A DNA stretch of 64,000 nt, from positions 1 through 64,000 of the IMG/VR virus record IMGVR_UViG_3300033417_000005; one strand, 5' to 3'. The notes under the pieces were generated by a model. It saw nothing but the letters and a program-made list of their open reading frames with translations, was not told where the DNA came from and did no database searches. Every line of letters starts with the position of its first letter. The stretch's first letter is position 1. This DNA comes from a virus. Its lineage: Duplodnaviria; Caudoviricetes. Positions 1 through 62,592 of this stretch are shown here, piece by piece. A program made the position numbers and the translations under genes.

Positions 1-5
1 GCCTC

Positions 6-2780
6 TTGGCTCTTGAAACCGGAGGCAATCTCGCTACGCTGGCCGGTACGGTCGGGGGCACGGAACTGCAAGTAGATATCGTGGCCGTGACGCCGGACCT
101 GATGCTCGGGACTGATTTCAGCAGTGTACTAGGCACGTCCTCCCTAGTGCTGGCTACGCAGGCGGACGACGTGGCGAATACGTCCGACGGTTTGCAGACG
201 ACTAGTTTCGGCTACATGTTTGACGGGACCACGTGGGACCGGGTACGAGGCACTAGCGTCGACGGATTGCTAGTCAACCTCGGCGCGAATAACGACGTTA
301 CCGTGACGGGCTCCGTGACGGCCAATGCGGGGACAAACCTCAACACTAGTCTCCTTGCGCTTGAGGGCGGCGGTAACTTGGCTACGGTCGCGGGCGCGGT
401 GGCGGGAACGGAAATGCAAGTCGACGTCGTGGCGGCGCTTCCGGCTGGCACCAACAACATCGGGGACGTCGACGTGCTGTCGGTTATTCCTGGTACGGGC
501 GCGACGAATCTCGGCAAGGCAGAGGACGGCCCGCACACTTCCGGCGACGTGGGCGTGATGTCGCTTGCGGTGCGGAATGATGCTGGCACTACTCTGGCAG
601 GCCTCGACGGGGATTATGCGCCATTGAGCGTCAATAGCGCGGGCGCGCTCTACGTTACGGGCGGCGGGGGCGGAACAGAGTATGTGGAAGACGACGCGGC
701 ACCCGCAAACCCGACCGCGGCGGCGCTGTCGCTCGTGCGGCAAGACACTCCGGCCGGCCTCACGACTCTCGACGGCGACATCGTGACTGCTCGGGGCACC
801 AATTTTGGCGCAATGTTCTGTCAGGTCATCGACTCGGCTGGCAACTTCATCGATACGTTTGGTGGCAGCGGCGGCACGGCGCAGGCTGATGAATCGTCGT
901 TTACCGAAGGCACGACTTCCATGACTCCCGTCGGCGGAGTCTTTAACGAAACGATTGTCAGTAACCCAACCGAAGATCAAGCAGCCGCCGTGCGTATCAC
1001 GGAGTTTCGGGCATTTCACGTCAACTGCCGCGACTTGTTAGGCAACCAAGCAATTGTACCGGGAACTAACAGCAATCACCTAGGGAAGCTGGAAGACGGA
1101 GTATCGACCAGCGGCGCGACGGGAGTCTTAGCTCTAGTGGTACGGAACGACACACCGGGTACGCTGGTCAGCACGGACGGCGACTATGCTGCGGTGCAAC
1201 AGAACGCAACGGGCGCGCTTTACGTCGACGGGAGTAACTCGACTCAGCCTGTGAGCGGAACCGTGACGGCCAACGCCGGAACGGATCTCAACACTAGTCT
1301 GCTGGCGCTCGAAGGTGGCGGCAATCTCGCGACGATTGCGGGCGCGGTAGCGGGTACGGAAATGCAAGTAGACGTAATTGCGTCATTGCCGGCCGGGACG
1401 AACAATATCGGCGACGTTGACGTGTTGTCGGTCGTGCCCGGGACTGCTGCAACCAATCTCGGTAAGGCTATTGATTCGGCCGCGGGCGCAACCGATACGG
1501 GAGTTGCGTTGCTGGCAATCCGTGACGACGCGTTGACGACCCTGACGCCAATTGACGGAGACTATGTGCCGATACGCGTCAACTCGACTGGAGAGTTGCA
1601 CGTGACAGGTGGCGGCGGCGGGACGGAATACAACGAAGACGACGCGACACCAGCCACAATCGTAGGCGCCGCGACGTTGATGGAACGTGACGACGTACTC
1701 GCGGCCGTGACACCGATAGAAGGCGACTGGATCGCGTTTCGTGGTACGGCTGAGGGGGCGTTGTGGACGCAGGATTTCAACAGCGACGCGATTCTGGCCG
1801 ACACCAGCACAATTGCCGGAGCGGTGAGCGGGACAGAGATGCAAGTTGACGTCGTGGCAGCCTTACCGGCGGGGACAAACAATATCGGCGACGTCGACGT
1901 TCTGACTTTCCCGGCAACGGTTCATTCCGAGGATTTCGACACCGGAGCCGGGACCGACACCACGTTGGCGTTCGGGATTGCGGTCCCGGCGTCGGGCGGG
2001 GCGGTCGTGGTGCCGGGGAGCGCGGCGGGCGGTCTGAAAGTCGATCTCGGCGCTGACAACGACGTGACGATTACGGGTACGGTGACCATTACGGACGATG
2101 GCGCGTTTAATCTAGCGGCCAACGATGGCGTGGACATTGGCGACGTCACCCTCAACAACGGATTTGCGGGCGTGACTGGTGGCGGGGTGGAGGCGACGGC
2201 ACTGCGGGTAACGCTGGCGAGCGATTCCACCGGGCTGGTAAGCGTTGATGATAACGGTGGATCGTTGACGGTCGATCAGGCGACGGCTAGCCTCTTTAAT
2301 GCGCAGGTTGTTGGCGACGTTGCGCACGACGCTGCCGATGCGGGCAATCCGGTTAAGATCGGAGGACGTGCGACAAATGCGGAAATCACCGCACTGGCGA
2401 ATAACGATCGGTCGGACCTGCTGACTGACCTCGTGGGCAAATTGATTGTACGACCGCACGCGCCGCCTGAGTTGACCCTGAACGGGGTGGCGAGCGCAAC
2501 CGGCACGGCCGATACGTCGGTGATTGCCGCGCAGGGGGCGGGGATACGAATCTACGTCACGTCGATTAGCATCGCGAATAGCAGCGCGACGACGGGTACG
2601 ATCGTGGAGATTAAGGACGGCACGACGGTGATTTGGCGTACGATTGCGCGCGCCGAAGGTGGTTCCAACATCACGTTCGATCCGCCGTTGCGATTGACGG
2701 CTAACACGATTCTCAACATGGCTGCGCTGACGGCGGCCACGACTGTTTATTTTTCAGCACACGGTTATTCGGGAGCATAA
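6..2780 (+). CDS. Large repetitive virion decoration/fibre-like protein, 5'-truncated by window edge
   Basis: Frame open from window start. Recurrent blocks NLNTSLLALEGGGNLAT, TEMQVDVVAALPAGTNNIGDVDVL and TNLGKAED; beta-sandwich-like C-terminus; lies ahead of neck genes. Confidence 0.7.
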   Translation: MALETGGNLATLAGTVGGTELQVDIVAVTPDLMLGTDFSSVLGTSSLVLATQADDVANTSDGLQTTSFGYMFDGTTWDRVRGTSVDGLLVNLGANNDVTVTGSVTANAGTNLNTSLLALEGGGNLATVAGAVAGTEMQVDVVAALPAGTNNIGDVDVLSVIPGTGATNLGKAEDGPHTSGDVGVMSLAVRNDAGTTLAGLDGDYAPLSVNSAGALYVTGGGGGTEYVEDDAAPANPTAAALSLVRQDTPAGLTTLDGDIVTARGTNFGAMFCQVIDSAGNFIDTFGGSGGTAQADESSFTEGTTSMTPVGGVFNETIVSNPTEDQAAAVRITEFRAFHVNCRDLLGNQAIVPGTNSNHLGKLEDGVSTSGATGVLALVVRNDTPGTLVSTDGDYAAVQQNATGALYVDGSNSTQPVSGTVTANAGTDLNTSLLALEGGGNLATIAGAVAGTEMQVDVIASLPAGTNNIGDVDVLSVVPGTAATNLGKAIDSAAGATDTGVALLAIRDDALTTLTPIDGDYVPIRVNSTGELHVTGGGGGTEYNEDDATPATIVGAATLMERDDVLAAVTPIEGDWIAFRGTAEGALWTQDFNSDAILADTSTIAGAVSGTEMQVDVVAALPAGTNNIGDVDVLTFPATVHSEDFDTGAGTDTTLAFGIAVPASGGAVVVPGSAAGGLKVDLGADNDVTITGTVTITDDGAFNLAANDGVDIGDVTLNNGFAGVTGGGVEATALRVTLASDSTGLVSVDDNGGSLTVDQATASLFNAQVVGDVAHDAADAGNPVKIGGRATNAEITALANNDRSDLLTDLVGKLIVRPHAPPELTLNGVASATGTADTSVIAAQGAGIRIYVTSISIANSSATTGTIVEIKDGTTVIWRTIARAEGGSNITFDPPLRLTANTILNMAALTAATTVYFSAHGYSGA

Positions 2781-7426: not shown

Positions 7427-7809
7427 CCAAGACCCTCAAGAAGACTCTCGGTGAGCTGTATGGCTGGCCCCATGTCATGACTCACCGGGAGTTTCTTACT
7501 TGGGAAGAGTGGCTGCGGCAAGAATGGGATCAGCCCTCGCGGACGGACCATTACTTAATGCGTATTGCCATGGAGGTTGCTTGCGTGCTTGCGAAGAATC
7601 CAAAGAAGATCACCATGGATCAGTTCAAGATTCCTTTTGACAAGCCCAGTTCCAAAGGACGTGACATAGCTTCGCTAGAACCGAAGATCAAGATGACAAA
7701 AGAACAAGCGGCCTATGTTGCCAAGCGAATGTGGGCAGGTCGCCTCGGCGTTCCTCTTGAAAAGTTAAACATCATTCCAAAGGACGTTACAATGCTGCGC
7801 AAGGAATAA
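7393..7809 (+). CDS. Frameshift extension of tail chaperone (gpGT analogue)
   Basis: The -1 frame reads RTSRYTGGFRVAKTLKKTLGELYGWPHVMTHREFLTWEEW, a GT-like pattern. Confidence 0.8.
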   Translation, partial: RTSRYTGGFRVAKTLKKTLGELYGWPHVMTHREFLTWEEWLRQEWDQPSRTDHYLMRIAMEVACVLAKNPKKITMDQFKIPFDKPSSKGRDIASLEPKIKMTKEQAAYVAKRMWAGRLGVPLEKLNIIPKDVTMLRKE

Positions 7810-10889: not shown

Positions 10890-10932
10890 ACGATCAAGTA
10901 AGGACGTAACAATGCTTCGCAAGGAATAACGC

Positions 10933-28560: not shown

Positions 28561-28830
28561 GAAAAAATAATCATATCAATCTTATATATTAACTACTACT
28601 AACCGTATAGAGTCCCGATGAGGGACCCTACTCTCTTCGGTCAGTCTCTCTACTCATCGGTACTCCGAACGGTCACTACTCTACTCTCCTCGGTCCCTCT
28701 ACTCATCTACTCTACTCTTCGTAGTATGGGTACTATGAGCCGATTTTTATCGGCCCTAAGAGGTATATACTACTCTCTATACGGTACGAGTACTCAGGTA
28801 CTCTACTCTAAGGTACTTACTAGGCGCGCG
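28561..28830. repeat. AT-rich tract plus 12 direct TACTC copies (candidate replication origin)
   Basis: TACTC at 28629, 28651, 28661, 28677, 28682, 28700, 28708, 28713, 28771, 28791, 28799 and 28804, all on one strand, in a divergent intergenic gap. Confidence 0.55.
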
Positions 28831-28874
28831 TGCGCGAAGAGGTAATCACTCATACACTCCATACGAGTCACTCT

Positions 28875-29336
28875 ATGCCCATCATTCACTCAAAGAGATC
28901 TGTATACGCAGGGATAGACCCCGGTATGAGCGGTGGGCTCGTCTGTATCGGCCCTCAACTAATCGTTACCCCCATGCCTCCTACCGAAAGAGATATCTGG
29001 GATTGGTTCGAGGCTCTTCCGCCCGTACGTCTGGCCGTGATAGAAAAGGTGCATTCCATGCCCCGACAAGGAGTGGCGAGTACCTTCAAGTTCGGTTGCA
29101 GCTACGGAGGACTGCGCATGGCTCTGATTGCTTCTAAGATCCCATTTCAAGAAGTAACGCCCCAAACTTGGATCAAGGGACTCGGGATTCCCGGTAAGAA
29201 GAAAACTGAATCTGGGACTCAGTGGAAAAATCGTCTCAAGGGCAAAGCGCAGCAATTCTTTCCGCAAGTAGGTGTGACGCTAAAAACGGCGGATGCACTT
29301 TTAATCGCCCGGTACTGCCAAAAAATCGGCAAGTAG
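28875..29336 (+). CDS. ruvC: RuvC-like Holliday junction resolvase
   Basis: GIDPGMSGG, VIEKV, ADALLIA. Confidence 0.85.
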   Translation: MPIIHSKRSVYAGIDPGMSGGLVCIGPQLIVTPMPPTERDIWDWFEALPPVRLAVIEKVHSMPRQGVASTFKFGCSYGGLRMALIASKIPFQEVTPQTWIKGLGIPGKKKTESGTQWKNRLKGKAQQFFPQVGVTLKTADALLIARYCQKIGK

Positions 29337-29355
29337 CGCGGTAAAATGCGTTTAT

Positions 29356-29429
29356 GTTTTCCGCTTACGAAAAGGTGAGCGGCGGATTGAAACACGCTTA
29401 TTTGCGGAAAGAATTGCTGCGCTTTGACC
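29356..29429 (+). CRISPR. Solitary CRISPR repeat (29356-29393) plus 36-nt spacer (29394-29429)
   Basis: GTTTTCCGCTTACGAAAAGGTGAGCGGCGGATTGAAAC; spacer is 32/36 identical to the reverse complement of 29240-29275, with 5' GTC PAM. Confidence 0.85.
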
Positions 29430-29527
29430 ACACGGGGTCAATGGTTTGGATCGTGCGCCCTCTGCTTTGCCGTGCGATCTGATTTTGCGGCCCCGTGTGG
29501 TTCTTACTAATCACCAGGAAAGTCGCG

Positions 29528-31969: not shown

Positions 31970-32563
31970 ATGATGGCAGTGAAGCAGCGTAAGAAGAAAG
32001 AGGGACCTTTGAGCAAGAGAGACCGGATAAGGGAGTATCTGCAAGGCTGTCCTGATCTGAGAAGTATCAACGCGAAGGAAATTGGGCGTATCTTCGGAGC
32101 GAATTCTTCCGAGATTTATAAGGTGCGGAGGGGGATCTATAAGTCTAGGGCGTTCGAGTACACCAATGCAGGTCGCGACGAGATGTTGAAAGAGACGCCC
32201 AAAGAGTTGTCTTGTCGCAAGGAGCCGACGGGTAAGAGAGGAAGAGTACTGGAATACTTGAGAAACCAGCCTGACCTGGCGAACATCAAAGCTAGGGAAA
32301 TCGCGGTGAACTTCGGGGTGCATATTACGGAAGTGTATAGAGCAAGGAAGCTGCTTAGGGAGGAACCAGTCAAGCCACTTCTCCTGAGGTTGTCAGCGCA
32401 GGAACCTTCGGCAACACTCGCGCAGCAATCTCCAGCTTTCAATGGAGCCGGTGACGACGGGGAACTGATTGGCGACCTGGTTGCACTTAACAAGATGGGT
32501 GTCGACAGAGTACGGAGGGCTGTTAAGATCCTGGACCGTTTGAGTATGGAGGATATTCAATGA
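31970..32563 (+). CDS. Protein with two tandem HTH-like repeats
   Basis: RIREYL...AKEIGRIFG...SEIYKVR echoed by RVLEYL...AREIAVNFG...TEVYRAR. Confidence 0.65.
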   Translation: MMAVKQRKKKEGPLSKRDRIREYLQGCPDLRSINAKEIGRIFGANSSEIYKVRRGIYKSRAFEYTNAGRDEMLKETPKELSCRKEPTGKRGRVLEYLRNQPDLANIKAREIAVNFGVHITEVYRARKLLREEPVKPLLLRLSAQEPSATLAQQSPAFNGAGDDGELIGDLVALNKMGVDRVRRAVKILDRLSMEDIQ

Positions 32564-32853
32564 AAAAATCCAGAAGAAGAACGGAACTGCCTAAGGACTA
32601 CGAGCAGTATCTAATTCGGCTTACGGATGAGATCTTCGAACGGGCTTGCGACGAAATGAGCTGGACGTGGAACGAGCTGGCCGACCACGCCAACGTTAGC
32701 CGGAGTGCCGTAGCTCGGCTTGGCAACTACATTACTAAACTTCCTCGGCTTCAGACGTTCTACAAACTGGCAAGTGCGGTTGACATGGACTTGGAACTCG
32801 TAACCAAGCAAGTTGTTAAACTACGGACGGCGGGAAGTTTGAAAGTCGGCTAG
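32560..32853 (+). CDS. XRE-family HTH protein
   Basis: WTWNELADHANVSRSAVARL...PRLQT. Confidence 0.75.
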   Translation: MKKSRRRTELPKDYEQYLIRLTDEIFERACDEMSWTWNELADHANVSRSAVARLGNYITKLPRLQTFYKLASAVDMDLELVTKQVVKLRTAGSLKVG

Positions 32854-32925
32854 TTTCCGCTCGCCAATCAGCGGGCGGCGGATTGAAACAAACTACAGGC
32901 AGTGGGAAAGTTTGAAAGTCGGTTA
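32853..32925 (+). CRISPR. Solitary CRISPR repeat (32853-32889) plus 36-nt spacer (32890-32925)
   Basis: GTTTCCGCTCGCCAATCAGCGGGCGGCGGATTGAAAC; spacer matches 32818-32852 at 30 of 36 positions (1 gap), with 5' GTT PAM. Confidence 0.8.
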
Positions 32926-33068
32926 AAACGATCCCAGCGCGGGTGGGGCGGCGTTTCCAAGCTCTCTCGCTCGCCCGTGCTGGGTTTCACCGGGAGGGAC
33001 TCGGTTTCCGTACTCTGCCGAGTTCCTCCTTTATTGACGCGAAGACTGAGAAAAGGAAAATAGGCAGA

Positions 33069-34267: not shown

Positions 34268-35482
34268 ATGGCAAAGACAAGTGCGAAAAAGCTGTTAGGT
34301 CCTAAGTTCAAAAAGCTGTTTGCGAAGAAGCGCGTGGAGGAGATCAGCCTGGAAGACTTCGGAGGCGGTGGGAATCTCCCGGATGGGATTGAAAATGGGG
34401 TGGCCAAGCTGGTGTCCATTAAGATTGGGGCTTATGGAGAGAGCACAACTTTGGCGGGCAAGCCATTCTTCATGCTACGGGGAGTAACCGTTGCCCCTGC
34501 CACACATGAGGGACTCAAGGTGCGGGGTATCCAAGAGAGTTTCGTGCTGGAACCATTGTGCGACACTTCGGGACGTAAACGTGAGACGGAGGAGGAGCAT
34601 ATCGACTACATGCTTGCCGTGTTGCAGCAGTTCGGGGTGGACACCGGCGAGATTGATGCGGAAGAGCTGGAGGAGGAAGACTTTTTTGCGGAGCTGATTG
34701 CCGACGGCGTCTACTTCCGCTTCCGCACCTGGAAAGGCAGGCCCTCCGATCAGTTTCCCAACCCTCGGGTTAATATTGAATTCTTAGGAGCCTGTGAGTA
34801 CGAGGAGGGAGAAGACGACATAGTCGCGGAAGAAGTGGAGGACGACACCCCCGAGGAAGACGAGGACGAGGAACCGGATTGGGAAAAGAACGACCGAAAA
34901 GGCAAGCGAAGTGCTGGTACGTCCAAGGGTACTCCTACGAAGAAGCCCGTCAAAGGACGTGACAATGCTGCGCAAGCAAAGGGGAAAAAGAAACCGCCTC
35001 CTGAAGATGAAGATGAAGAAGAAGACGAAGAGGCTGACTATTCCGATGTAACCGACCTTGACTTGCTGTCGGAACTCGCTGAAGATCAAGACGACATAGC
35101 GGCGAGGGAGAGGCTGGTCGAGCTGGGCGTGGAAGCGGGGCTGAGTAAGAAGAAACTCGAAGCCCTCGACAGTTGGTACGACGTGGCCGCGGCGATTGAT
35201 GAAGCGGGTGAAGAAGATGAGAATGAGGATGAGGATGGGGACGATGAAGACGAAGATGAAGACGAAGATGAAGATGAAGATGAAGACGAAGATGAAGAAG
35301 AGGGCCGTGAATTAGTGCCGGAGAAGGGCCAAGGGTGGCAATACAAGCCGCCGGGAGCTCGTAAGAAGATCCCCTGCGTTGTCACCGCCGTTGCCGCACG
35401 GCGTAAAACTTGTACCCTCAAGGGAAAGGATGGAAAGATATACAAGGACGTAACGTGGGCTGCCCTCATGAGTGGCAGGTAA
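34268..35482 (+). CDS. Putative ssDNA-binding protein with long acidic region
   Basis: Follows the Sak4-like gene; beta-rich N-domain, D/E runs, small C-terminal beta domain. Confidence 0.55.
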   Translation: MAKTSAKKLLGPKFKKLFAKKRVEEISLEDFGGGGNLPDGIENGVAKLVSIKIGAYGESTTLAGKPFFMLRGVTVAPATHEGLKVRGIQESFVLEPLCDTSGRKRETEEEHIDYMLAVLQQFGVDTGEIDAEELEEEDFFAELIADGVYFRFRTWKGRPSDQFPNPRVNIEFLGACEYEEGEDDIVAEEVEDDTPEEDEDEEPDWEKNDRKGKRSAGTSKGTPTKKPVKGRDNAAQAKGKKKPPPEDEDEEEDEEADYSDVTDLDLLSELAEDQDDIAARERLVELGVEAGLSKKKLEALDSWYDVAAAIDEAGEEDENEDEDGDDEDEDEDEDEDEDEDEDEEEGRELVPEKGQGWQYKPPGARKKIPCVVTAVAARRKTCTLKGKDGKIYKDVTWAALMSGR

Positions 35483-49480: not shown

Positions 49481-49821
49481 GTGACTTCTCCTTTCTGCGA
49501 AGCAATCTTTAGCTTTTCTTGAATGGGATATACGACGCCTCGTATTTTCAGTTCGAGCACGGCGTCGAGTGGAATGCTGCGGTACGCCTGTTTTTGTACG
49601 TCCCACACGGTAAGCAGGTTGTGCTCTTCAGGGTTGTAGGCCAGCCCTTTTCCTTGCGCAGCATTGTCACGTCCTTTGAGGTCCTTGGCCACCCCCAAAC
49701 GGCATACCATGCGCCGAGGCTGCCCGTCAGTCCGCTTGATAAACAGGCAGCTGAATATCGTGGCTCCTGCTTTGTTGACAATCAGCCGTTTGGCTTTGGA
49801 GGTTTTACTTTTCTTCTTCAT
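49477..49821 (-). CDS. SH3/WYL-like fold phage protein
   Basis: FIKRTDGQPRRM...VWDVQKQAYRSIPL. Confidence 0.7.
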   Translation of the reverse strand: MKKKSKTSKAKRLIVNKAGATIFSCLFIKRTDGQPRRMVCRLGVAKDLKGRDNAAQGKGLAYNPEEHNLLTVWDVQKQAYRSIPLDAVLELKIRGVVYPIQEKLKIASQKGEVT

Positions 49822-55388: not shown

Positions 55389-56133
55389 TCACGATCTTAC
55401 GGGTGGCGCGACGAGATTTTTTGGCGCAAAAAGTTGAATATGTGACTCATTGACTCATGGAAAAACCAAAACTTACTTCGCGAGAAATGCTTCGTCGTGA
55501 CAACGCTCCACGTGGAAGACGGATTTTAAAAAATCGTGGTGCCCCACCCGCACACCACCCTTCTTAGGATAAAGAAAAGAATATTCTTTGTAAAGTATAG
55601 AGAATCTAATCTTAAGCATAAGTTCTTATTCTCTCTAGAAAGAGAAAGAAAAGAAGAGATACGATTTTATTCAGTAAAAAGAAGACTTCTTCTCTTAGAA
55701 AGATCAAAGAATCTTTGTAAAAAGTAAGACTTCTTCTTTTAGAAAGAAAAGAAATTTGAGTTCTTCTTTTGAAAAGAAAAAAGTTTCCGTCTTGGGTGTG
55801 CGCGTACGCGCGAGGAATCCGCTTTTGATTTCGTTTCGGTCCATGAACTTTGATTTCCGTTCGTTCCTAGATTCTTATCTTCGATTCAGTTTACCTGGAT
55901 CCTAGATTCTTATCTTCGATTCAGTTTATCTGGATCCATCTTTTCGGTTCTTATGTTTTGATTTCCATTCGTTCCAAAGTTTCGGTCCAAAGTTTTTGAT
56001 TTCGTTTCGTTCTTAGCCTTGGAATTTGGATCATCCATCTTTTCGGTTCTTGAGTTTTGATTTCCATTCGTTCGCGTTCCAAGATGTGGAAAGAATTTGA
56101 ACTTCCACTTTTGCGAAACGTGCCCGCAACGAT

Positions 56134-56183
56134 TTGGATTGGATTGGATTGGATTGGATTGGATTGGATTGGATTGGATTGGA
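56134..56183 (+). repeat. (TTGGA)10 microsatellite
   Basis: Ten perfect units. Confidence 0.95.
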
Positions 56184-56546
56184 AATGGAAGATGAATGAA
56201 AACCCTTGGCCGGAAAACGATTTGTGAATGCAAGCGCAGCGCTGTAACGTCCAAGAAACGGGGTACTTCTAAATACCTCAAAAGTGGCAAATAATCTACC
56301 AGTTTGTTAAGCTAGGCAAACCTAGGCTGAGGGGCCCAAATTTGCGACCTCACGCACTTTGCCGGGTTTTGGCATAAAACTAGCCACTTGCCATTTTAGG
56401 ACGTCAGATCCTAAATTTGGGTCCCTGAGGACAAATTAAAAAGCAAACCGCATTGCCAATTGCCAAACCTGAATTTTCAAAACGCTCTGTACAGCGTACC
56501 CTTCGCCTCGTAGCGACATAGCCCCATTGCCCCGTATGTCGGCTCG

Positions 56547-60688: not shown

Positions 60689-62291
60689 GAAAACAGGTCG
60701 TTTTACTGATGACGGGAACGGGCATTATGGGATCAAGTTCGACTCGGCAAAGGAACTGCAACAATTCGAGGAGATTGTAGCAAATGCTCTGGTAAGCCGT
60801 CAAGAGTTCTTCAAGTCGTTCACTGATCCGAGAAGGGATATCGACGACGAATGCGGGTATCCTCGTACGGAAACCTTGGAGGTCGAAGACTACCGGGAAA
60901 TGTACGACAAGGAAAGCGTGGCTGCGCGAACGGTGAACGTGCTTCCCGAGGAGAGCTGGCAAGTACAGCCCCGAGTGTTTGAAACCGAAGACGTGGATAA
61001 CATAACTCCATTTGAGGAAGACTGGGCGGAGCTTCCCAAGTCGCTGCGAGGGAGAAGCTGGTATCAGGATGAAGAAGGAAACCCGGTATGGGAACTGCTC
61101 AAACGAGTAGACATCCTGAGTGGTATCGGTTCTTACGGCATCCTGCTGTTTGGTCTCGACGACCTCGACGTCAATCAGCCTCTGACGACCCCCGTTGCCG
61201 GTGTGGAAGAGATGATGGTTGATCCTGAAAGCAAAATATCTCCTTCGCGGCATAGGCTTCTGTTTGTAAGAGCATTCGATCAGTCCCTCGTACGAATAAG
61301 TCGCTTTAACACCGATCGGTCGCACCCTCGGCACGGATTGCCTGAGATTTATGCCGTAACGCTCAACGATCCTAGGAACAACGTACAAGGAGCGATCGGT
61401 ATCGACACGGCTACCGTTGACGTGCATTGGACCCGGGTGTTGCACGTCGCCGACAACCTCGGAAGCAGCGAAGTCTTTGGCGTCCCGCGTCAGCAGCAAG
61501 TATTCAATCGGCTGTACGATTTACGGAAAACCTACGGCGGCAGCGCCGAAATGTATTGGCGAGGAGCATTTCCCGGCCTCTCTATCGAATCCCATCCTCA
61601 ATTGGGAGCCTCAGTTTCTCTGAACAAAGATGCGATTCGCAGCCAAATGGAACAATACTTTAATGGACTTCAAAGATATCTGGCGGTGGTGGGGGCAAGC
61701 GTCAAGTCCATCGCTCCTCAAGTTGTGGAGCCGAGTAAGCATATCGACCAATACATCACGGCGATCTGCATCCTTCTCGGGGTTCCCAAGCGTGTGTTCA
61801 TGGGGACTGAACGTGGGCAGCTGGCATCCGGCCAAGACGACAAGACCTGGAATGACCGACTGATGAAAAGGCACAAGTCCTATCTTACGCCCAAGCTCAC
61901 TGTACCTTTCATAGATCGTCTTATCGCTTATGGGGTGCTGCGGGAACCGGAGGGATATAGCGTGGTATGGCCCGATCTCAACAATCTCACCGATCAAGAG
62001 AAAGCTGAAGTGGCCGGTAAACGAACCGAGAGCTTGGCCAAGTACGTGGCGGGCGACGTGGAAACCATCATCACTCCCGTCGATTATCTAGTTCGTATCA
62101 TAGGCTTCAGTCCGGAAGAAGCTCATGCCATCGTGGAAGCGGCGGAGGAAGCGGCCGAAGAAAAAGCGATTGAAGAGGGACGTGACAATGCTTTGCAAGA
62201 AGATGAAGTTCGTGTTAGAGGCTTCAATCCGGAAGATGAAGAAGGTGATGAAACAGGTGAAGAAGATGAAGATGAAGAAGATGAAGAATAA
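60666..62291 (+). CDS. Portal protein (DUF1073-like)
   Basis: VHWTRVLH; G.P; GVPKRVFMG; WPDL; position. Confidence 0.85.
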   Translation: MKTQIRDKKTGRFTDDGNGHYGIKFDSAKELQQFEEIVANALVSRQEFFKSFTDPRRDIDDECGYPRTETLEVEDYREMYDKESVAARTVNVLPEESWQVQPRVFETEDVDNITPFEEDWAELPKSLRGRSWYQDEEGNPVWELLKRVDILSGIGSYGILLFGLDDLDVNQPLTTPVAGVEEMMVDPESKISPSRHRLLFVRAFDQSLVRISRFNTDRSHPRHGLPEIYAVTLNDPRNNVQGAIGIDTATVDVHWTRVLHVADNLGSSEVFGVPRQQQVFNRLYDLRKTYGGSAEMYWRGAFPGLSIESHPQLGASVSLNKDAIRSQMEQYFNGLQRYLAVVGASVKSIAPQVVEPSKHIDQYITAICILLGVPKRVFMGTERGQLASGQDDKTWNDRLMKRHKSYLTPKLTVPFIDRLIAYGVLREPEGYSVVWPDLNNLTDQEKAEVAGKRTESLAKYVAGDVETIITPVDYLVRIIGFSPEEAHAIVEAAEEAAEEKAIEEGRDNALQEDEVRVRGFNPEDEEGDETGEEDEDEEDEE

Positions 62292-62592
62292 GAGTCTAAG
62301 ACTTCGGCAAGCCGCCGTTTTCGCTTACGTGCAAGGCACCCTCGAAGAATTAAGCGAGGCGCGCATGGTAGTTTTGGAAGGGGTGGAGCTGACCCCTTTT
62401 GGAAGAACGCTGTTTGAAGAGTTGAGGAGATGCGGCTTTAGTCCAACGGACGAAGAGATCAACGCGGCGTTTGCCACAGCTTATGCGGGATTTGCCGACG
62501 AGGAACAGTGGCGACTTGGGGCAAAGCTAGTACGAAACTGTAGAGACAACCCAAAGCTGATCGAGATGTATACGGCCTACAAATACAACTAG
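62281..62592 (+). CDS. Hypothetical protein
   Basis: ATG at 62281, overlapping the portal end. Confidence 0.55.
   Translation: MKNKSLRLRQAAVFAYVQGTLEELSEARMVVLEGVELTPFGRTLFEELRRCGFSPTDEEINAAFATAYAGFADEEQWRLGAKLVRNCRDNPKLIEMYTAYKYN

Follow-up and report, generated by a model that had tools for sequence, protein, structure and literature searches.

A phage gene followed by a single CRISPR-type repeat and by a spacer-sized, imperfect copy of its own end raises the question of whether a virus without cas genes may supply guides to the CRISPR machinery of its host. The window analysed here (64,000 nt) covers the first 64 kb of an IMG/VR virus record of 72,616 bp that was rated complete by CheckV. 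The sequence-only reading of this DNA had proposed, next to ruvC, a cas-less unit of one CRISPR-type repeat and one spacer. In agreement with this proposal, tblastn searches with six I-C Cas proteins detected no cas homologue in the 72.6-kb phage genome (best E 0.08), and a second unit was identified behind a gene encoding a helix-turn-helix (HTH) protein. A hairpin-plus-handle search of the whole phage genome revealed no further units beyond these two. Both are located within a plus-strand replication and recombination module, the genes of which encode a RuvC-like resolvase, a UDG-family protein, a PD-(D/E)XK nuclease, two HTH proteins, a Sak4-like annealing protein and DNA polymerase I. The phage polymerase is ~24% identical to those of isolated phages, no close cultured relative was found, and no tRNA genes were found in the phage.

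Structure of the two units

Unit 1 follows the gene for a RuvC-like Holliday junction resolvase (28875-29336, plus strand; alternative GTG start at 28830), assigned from the open reading frame list, a PHROG match (phrog_1770, E 2e-19) and JGI homologues named RuvC. The 38-nt repeat R1 (29356-29393, plus strand) starts 20 nt past the ruvC stop codon and, as first described, folds into a hairpin, with an 8-bp stem containing one G.U pair, a 6-nt loop and an 11-nt tail, CGGATTGAAAC. The TAAAAT box pointed out upstream of R1 is indeed present (29342-29347), but a sigma-70 scan called no promoter at this position, and the box is instead contained in a small terminator-like hairpin after the ruvC stop (29335-29352, plus strand), the T-run of which extends into R1. 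The 36-nt spacer S1 (29394-29429, plus strand) is antisense to the ruvC codons for G/V-KAQQFFPQ-VG/IS-V, and its similarity to ruvC sets in at the repeat/spacer junction and extends over 36 nt. A very stable compound hairpin (29426-29502, plus strand; RNA fold -64 kcal/mol, z -4.5) begins in the last 4 nt of S1 and occupies the position of a second repeat.

The phage's own mismatched copy of the S1 target, X1, lies inside ruvC (29240-29275, minus strand; 32/36 identity). Unit 1 is inverted relative to X1, with 80 nt between the unit and this copy. The match, the mismatches at spacer positions 3, 5, 8 and 34 and the GTC flank on the protospacer strand (29276-29278) were all reproduced by script, as was the placement of mismatches 3, 5 and 8 in the PAM-proximal seed; three of the four self-mismatches thus fall at spacer positions 1-8 (P ~0.03). 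The local alignment of S1 with X1 scored 52 (maximum of 24 in 200 shuffles), and a repeat search recovered the same similarity as inverted-repeat arms of 37 nt (29240-29276 and 29393-29429; 89% complementary). Three of the four mismatches would be G.U or G.T wobbles and become G.U pairs in RNA; if co-transcribed, ruvC 29243-29276 and S1 are predicted to form a 34-bp helix (-138.5 kcal/mol, z -9.8). The spacer had also been said to read like a homolog in the ruvC frame. It does so: S1 is in frame and translates as VKAQQFFPQISV where the phage's own gene encodes GKAQQFFPQVGV, and it alters only residues that vary among RuvC homologues.

Unit 2 follows a gene for an XRE-type HTH protein of 97 aa (32560-32853, plus strand; Pfam HTH_3, E 8e-5), the stop codon of which abuts the 37-nt repeat R2 (32853-32889, plus strand), so that R2 begins 0 nt after it. 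R2 has the 5' end GTTTCCGC and the 3' end GCGGCGGATTGAAAC of the array family described below, and an 8-bp stem with one G.U pair and a 6-nt loop. The own copy of the target, X2 (32818-32853, plus strand), consists of the final 11 codons and the stop codon of the HTH gene and is flanked on its 5' side by GTT (32815-32817). The spacer S2 (32890-32925, plus strand) is a direct copy of X2 that differs by six transitions and one extra A in a run at positions 18-20 (alignment score 39, shuffle maximum 24). Unit 2 therefore has the layout X-repeat-X', in which both 36-nt copies are flush against R2 and in direct orientation. S2 has a 1-nt insertion relative to any in-frame allele; after removal of one A it reads KLQAVGSLKVG-stop, and the phage's own sequence is KLRTAGSLKVG-stop. 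The closest relative found of the HTH protein, P0122 (80% identity), is encoded on a 589-nt ENA contig, and the residues at which S2 departs from the phage's own reading also vary in P0122. S2 is in sense orientation, and no pairing with the mRNA of its gene is possible. It is followed by a long hairpin (32933-32984) and by an intrinsic-terminator-like hairpin with a T-run (32992-33030); the whole region (32933-33036, plus strand) is predicted to fold with -86 kcal/mol (z -3.7).

Each cassette thus consists of one repeat, one 36-nt segment and then a very stable hairpin or terminator, with each 36-nt segment copying the end of the gene directly upstream at 83-89% identity. In a whole-genome search, S1 and S2 each matched solely the neighbouring gene. 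Neither unit has a leader, and no degenerate second repeat was detected behind S1 or S2 by eye or by pattern search, the hairpins found there being unrelated. Nine of the 10 substitutions in S1 and S2 are transitions. Judged from their sequences, the two spacers plausibly look like homologous alleles of the adjacent gene.

Repeat family and CRISPR subtype

The use of the term repeat for R1 is justified by the second copy at 32853-32889 and by the true arrays that its family forms elsewhere. R1 and R2 share a 15-nt 3' end and belong to a real CRISPR family, GTTTCCGC-N14-GCGGCGGATTGAAAC, the array repeats of which agree in their first 8 and last 15 nt. The 5' and 3' parts of this family were matched at 13 loci in a metagenome scan, with true arrays at seven of them. 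These arrays contain 3-22 repeats of 37 nt and spacers of 33-39 nt; the similarity in both units is 36 nt long, which is the family spacer length. In an alignment of 15 family members, 17 columns were invariant and all were retained in R1 and R2, the stems of which are kept through G.U-preserving changes. The family stem covaries, with 93% of cells paired and a covariation of 0.415 (0.150 in shuffles; none of 500 shuffles reached as high a value). Full conservation of the repeats beside spacers that differ from the gene copies by 11-17% indicates either selection on the repeats or a very recent capture. No Rfam family was found at the gathering threshold, CRISPR-DR9 scoring 17 bits, far under it.

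Three independent family arrays adjoin type I-C cas genes: the array L075, from the Deinococcus MAG JAGLBK01 (Cas3, Cas5c, a weak Cas8c, Cas7/Csd2, Cas4 and Cas1c), L152 (Cas1c and Cas2) and L158 (Csd2, Cas4, Cas1c and Cas2). Cas1c scored 415-476 bits at the three loci, over the cut-off of 385, whereas the I-D Cas1 model remained under its cut-off of 385 at all three (256-275 bits). In both units, the distance from the hairpin to the end of the repeat is 11 nt, with a stem ...GCGG followed by CGGATTGAAAC. Type I-C systems have no Cas6, and processing is carried out by Cas5 (preprint 10.1101/2020.06.15.151498; PMC10651486). The 11-nt tail corresponds to Cas5c geometry rather than to the 8 nt of a Cas6 handle, and cleavage would be expected at this point. 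The assignment to Cas6 and type I-D in the sequence-only reading is therefore not supported, given the I-C cas genes at three arrays and the hairpin-to-end distance. The GTH PAM proposed with it does not agree with the canonical I-C PAM, 5'-TTC (preprint 10.1101/2020.06.15.151498), and the GT shared by the GTC and GTT flanks (chance ~1 in 16) is weak evidence for another PAM. Cas8c at L075 scored under its model cut-off (160 vs 219 bits), which makes a non-canonical PAM conceivable.

Matching the repeat to arrays, which had been suggested as a way to host and subtype, yielded subtype I-C through the family arrays, but the JGI metagenome scan turned up no array whose repeat equals R1 or R2; the best array repeats matched R1 at 31/38 and R2 at 33/37 positions, and all differences were in the stem-loop. 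A scan of genome contigs gave, among the matches listed, mostly chance single matches and one Deinococcus MAG, and the family pattern was present in 2 of 364 genomes of the phylum of this MAG. PLSDB plasmids provided nothing useful for the host repeat. No spacers against the phage were found in the family arrays, and no protospacers of the family spacers were found in IMG/VR or among GenBank phages. The sole family protospacer found is a self-match in the Deinococcus MAG, flanked by TCC.

Proposed guide cassettes and alternative explanations

The explanation that we prefer, although we give it slightly less than an even chance, is that the units are leaderless, cas-less, one-repeat mini-arrays that load the type I-C Cascade of the host against alleles of sibling phages. 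We infer a mechanism in which each cassette would be transcribed together with its upstream gene or just behind it, and in which host Cas5c would cut at the 3' base of the repeat hairpin, giving the 11-nt handle CGGAUUGAAAC. The 36-nt guide would be bound by host Cas7, Cas8c and Cas11, with the downstream hairpin capping its 3' end, and the complex would recruit Cas3 to co-infecting sister phages with the guide-matching allele. The allele of the carrier would be spared by its seed mismatches (3, 5 and 8 in unit 1) and possibly also by the non-TTC flank. Guide and immune allele lie within ~150 nt, so recombination between siblings could not part the weapon from its antidote. A single repeat would also prevent the loss of the spacer through repeat-repeat recombination; spacer loss of this type is a discussed cost of arrays (PMC7099407).

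This guide function is suggested by the real repeat family, its I-C context, the similarity that runs from the junction through 36 nt, the allele-like spacers and the absence of cas genes. It would require that I-C Cascade accept a guide without a 3' repeat hairpin. Efficient guiding would be disfavoured by the 1-nt insertion in S2, beyond which, from about position 19 on, pairing would be out of register, and by the predicted 34-bp helix with ruvC, in which S1 would be held if unit 1 is co-transcribed with that gene. The wobble-type mismatches in unit 1 would protect the carrier poorly, and imperfect self-matches carry a risk of primed adaptation against the carrier (PMC7099407). No exact match for S1, for S2 or for the core common to S1 and X1 was found in IMG/VR, and the best RuvC relative among 5.8 billion proteins was 69% identical; a RuvC-based locus search likewise gave none above this value. 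Sibling targeting is therefore a proposed function. The repeat is absent from ~61%-identical RuvC relatives (L003 and L004) and from three related records of ~70 kb.

Virus-borne mini-arrays and lone repeats are already known, and the units are a known kind of element in an unusual one-repeat layout. The portogloboviruses SPV1 and SPV2 carry virus-borne mini-CRISPR arrays (Medvedeva et al. 2019, PMC6858448), and the phage mini-arrays of Faure et al. 2019 are leaderless in the accounts given of them (PMC6858448, PMC7099407, PMC11656645). The pattern invoked at the outset, a viral mini-array directed against related viruses, has thus been published (PMC6858448). As in these mini-arrays, the phage studied here lacks cas genes and has repeats of a cellular family with one or two spacers. 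In mini-arrays, the spacer corresponds to the array-adjacent gene in related viruses and the carrier's own locus is point-mutated; our own sites are mutated too, with four mismatches in unit 1 and six mismatches plus an indel in unit 2. However, mini-arrays have at least two repeats flanking one or two spacers, whereas only a single repeat is present in each unit, with a strong hairpin or terminator in place of the second. Mini-array spacers match close viruses at or near 100%; for the units studied here, no sister virus with a perfect target was found in IMG/VR, and the nearest RuvC and HTH proteins are 69% and 80% identical. The own copy and spacer of unit 2, both flush on R2, are a further difference. 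The units also differ from SPV1 and SPV2 in belonging to subtype I-C in a bacterial phage and in having a repeat identical to that of no array found. They would act like a virus-borne mini-array, which is a plausible function, yet depart from the two-repeat layout.

The proximity of the mini-array to the targeted gene has been reported for SPV1, SPV2 and phage mini-arrays and was called "unclear" (PMC6858448). Linkage of the guide to an immune allele would explain why the neighbouring gene is the target; if guiding is true, weapon and immunity allele would be held together by linkage, which would account for this proximity rule. In phage homing and marker exclusion, for example by the Seg and Tev endonucleases of T4, the weapon is likewise encoded beside its target site, and the carrier's site is resistant owing to sequence differences. 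Their tight linkage would permit spread by recombinational repair. Unlike in these systems, the nuclease here would be host Cascade-Cas3 with a phage RNA guide, and homing is a proposal. We consider it quite improbable that the cassettes were born when an I-C-cut phage genome was repaired off the host array, which would have turned a host spacer into a phage guide against unmutated siblings, with homing-like spread. Array-templated repair would explain the flush gene-end, repeat and gene-end-copy layout of unit 2, and a gene-drive-like spread would follow if the guide cuts the allele beside its own insertion site. The units are a clean pair for testing, since each combines a single repeat with an allele-like guide of exactly spacer size and a terminator. 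If they guide host Cascade, type I-C would accept single-repeat guides, which would be useful for tool design.

The alternative that fares best, although we regard it as unlikely, is that the units are decoys of the RNA anti-CRISPR (Racr) type, in which the lone repeats, transcribed behind the upstream ORFs, would bind host Cas5c and Cas7 in dead-end complexes and the spacer-like copies would be no more than a footprint of acquisition. Each unit is of known subtype, non-coding, situated behind an ORF and part of a mobile element, which is how solitary repeat units are defined. The layout equals that of RacrIC1, which has been validated: a solitary I-C repeat lies 11 nt behind an ORF with which it is co-transcribed, so that its position is intergenic or in the 3'-UTR (Camara-Wilpert et al. 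2023, PMC10651486). R1 and R2 begin 20 and 0 nt past stop codons. Like Racrs, the units belong to a phage that lacks cas genes, and terminators follow them. The indel in S2 and the possible sequestration of S1 in a helix also favour a decoy, as do other lone family repeats that have no neighbour-like spacers (metagenome contigs L149 and L160, and twice in the viral record G005). However, decoys leave unexplained why both units carry a copy of the adjacent gene of exactly spacer length, and no Racr has been reported to need or carry such a copy. Moreover, no acr gene was recognised near the units with the general families of Pfam and PHROG, and inhibition would be a prediction of this reading. 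If the units are nothing but decoys, the flanking copies would still record the capture of repeats from host arrays by the phage.

It is distinctly unlikely, in our estimation, that the units are inert or young recombination scars, in which a repeat was gained from a host I-C array with a spacer from this phage lineage. By one route, the array would have served as template for the repair of a genome cut by Cas3, and copying from both broken ends would have run across the spacer into the identical repeats on either side, leaving a gene end, a repeat and a copy of the gene end. Unit 2 has exactly this X-repeat-X' arrangement, flush and in direct orientation, and its spacer contains a frameshifting insertion such as drift would give. 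A weaker echo of the same layout was observed at L159, where a 16-nt duplicate includes the stop codon of the upstream gene (TGA vs TAA; p ~0.05). Neither unit possesses a leader, and recombination with host arrays has been put forward as a source of new spacers for phage mini-arrays (PMC6858448, PMC7099407). However, the repair route cannot yield unit 1, with its inverted orientation and its distance of 80 nt to the copy, and the repeats keep every invariant position and their stems while the spacers differ by 11-17%. In addition, the searches yielded no donor array that contains R1 or R2.

Regulation by RNA, either independent of Cas proteins or directed at the phage itself, appears highly unlikely. 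The RNA of unit 1 would pair with the 3' end of the ruvC mRNA, as an antisense RNA or an RNase III processing site, or Cascade would repress the phage's own genes without cutting. The predicted ruvC/S1 helix (z -9.8), in which three of the four mismatches become G.U pairs, is consistent with this possibility, and crRNA-like regulators with partial matches are known (preprint 10.1101/2024.12.27.630466). CreA of CreTA and crlRNAs (preprints 10.1101/2024.01.05.574328 and 10.1101/2024.12.27.630466) resemble our units in combining a degenerate or lone repeat with a spacer-like segment that partially matches a nearby gene region. However, these regulators are encoded by the host and directed at promoters, and what they retain is the PAM-proximal part of the match, the distal part being lost; unit 1 shows the reverse and matches the 3' end of a coding sequence. 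S2, being sense, cannot pair with the mRNA of its own gene, and the conserved CRISPR repeat would be left unexplained. Finally, a Cas6-processed type I-D crRNA with a GTH PAM is scarcely credible: both own-copy flanks start with GT and Cas6 systems, too, typically have an 8-nt end such as ATTGAAAC, but all three cas contexts of the family are I-C, the stem ends 11 rather than 8 nt before the repeat end, and the one family protospacer found is flanked by TCC, not GTN.

Other repeats in the phage genome and at family loci

Several other repeats were observed in the window. The intergenic stretch between a divergent gene of 482 aa and ruvC (28618-28845) is dense in short repeats of the TACTC/GGTACT type (family D19) and could correspond to iterons or to a divergent promoter region. 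A dispersed motif of ~25-30 nt with the core GGACGTKACA..GCTKCGC occurs in more than 12 copies between 7655 and 62205, on both strands and partly within genes (for example at 7780-7809, 10900-10929, 34953-34982 and, in reverse, 49650-49678), and may be a phage-specific promoter or regulator site. Long codon repeats of the GAAGAT/GAAGAC type (34800-35330 and 62219-62303) encode acidic Asp/Glu tracts in two ORFs. The pentanucleotide TTGGA forms a tandem array of ~13 copies at 56124-56188, with other short direct repeats nearby (55676-56073). At the start of the window (1-2200), an ORF of 925 aa contains a coding repeat of 70-220 nt in 3-4 diverged copies, 71-81% identical to the reference copy, and probably encodes a repetitive tail-fibre-like protein.

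Further observations concern the loci of the repeat family. In the array of 22 repeats at L151, one stem pair is disrupted by an A (A.C) in 14 consecutive repeats and intact, with a paired G, in the remaining eight, such that a single array contains two repeat variants. One spacer of the L075 array matches perfectly positions 546-579 of L029, a different contig from the MAG that carries this array. The matched site, flanked by TCC, is located ~400 nt away from a second array and is a possible self-target of the type I-C array of this Deinococcus MAG. The lone family repeat of L159 (1460-1538, reverse strand), on a contig from Hainich groundwater, lies between two 16-nt near-duplicates and is followed by hairpins. 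Two lone repeats very close to R2 (L176 and L178) were found 1.2 kb apart in the viral record IMGVR_UViG_3300036768_000632, at ~31.4 and 32.6 kb; they have the stem ends of R2, a CGATCA loop and a conserved upstream region of ~45 nt, and each is antisense to the 3' end of a gene.
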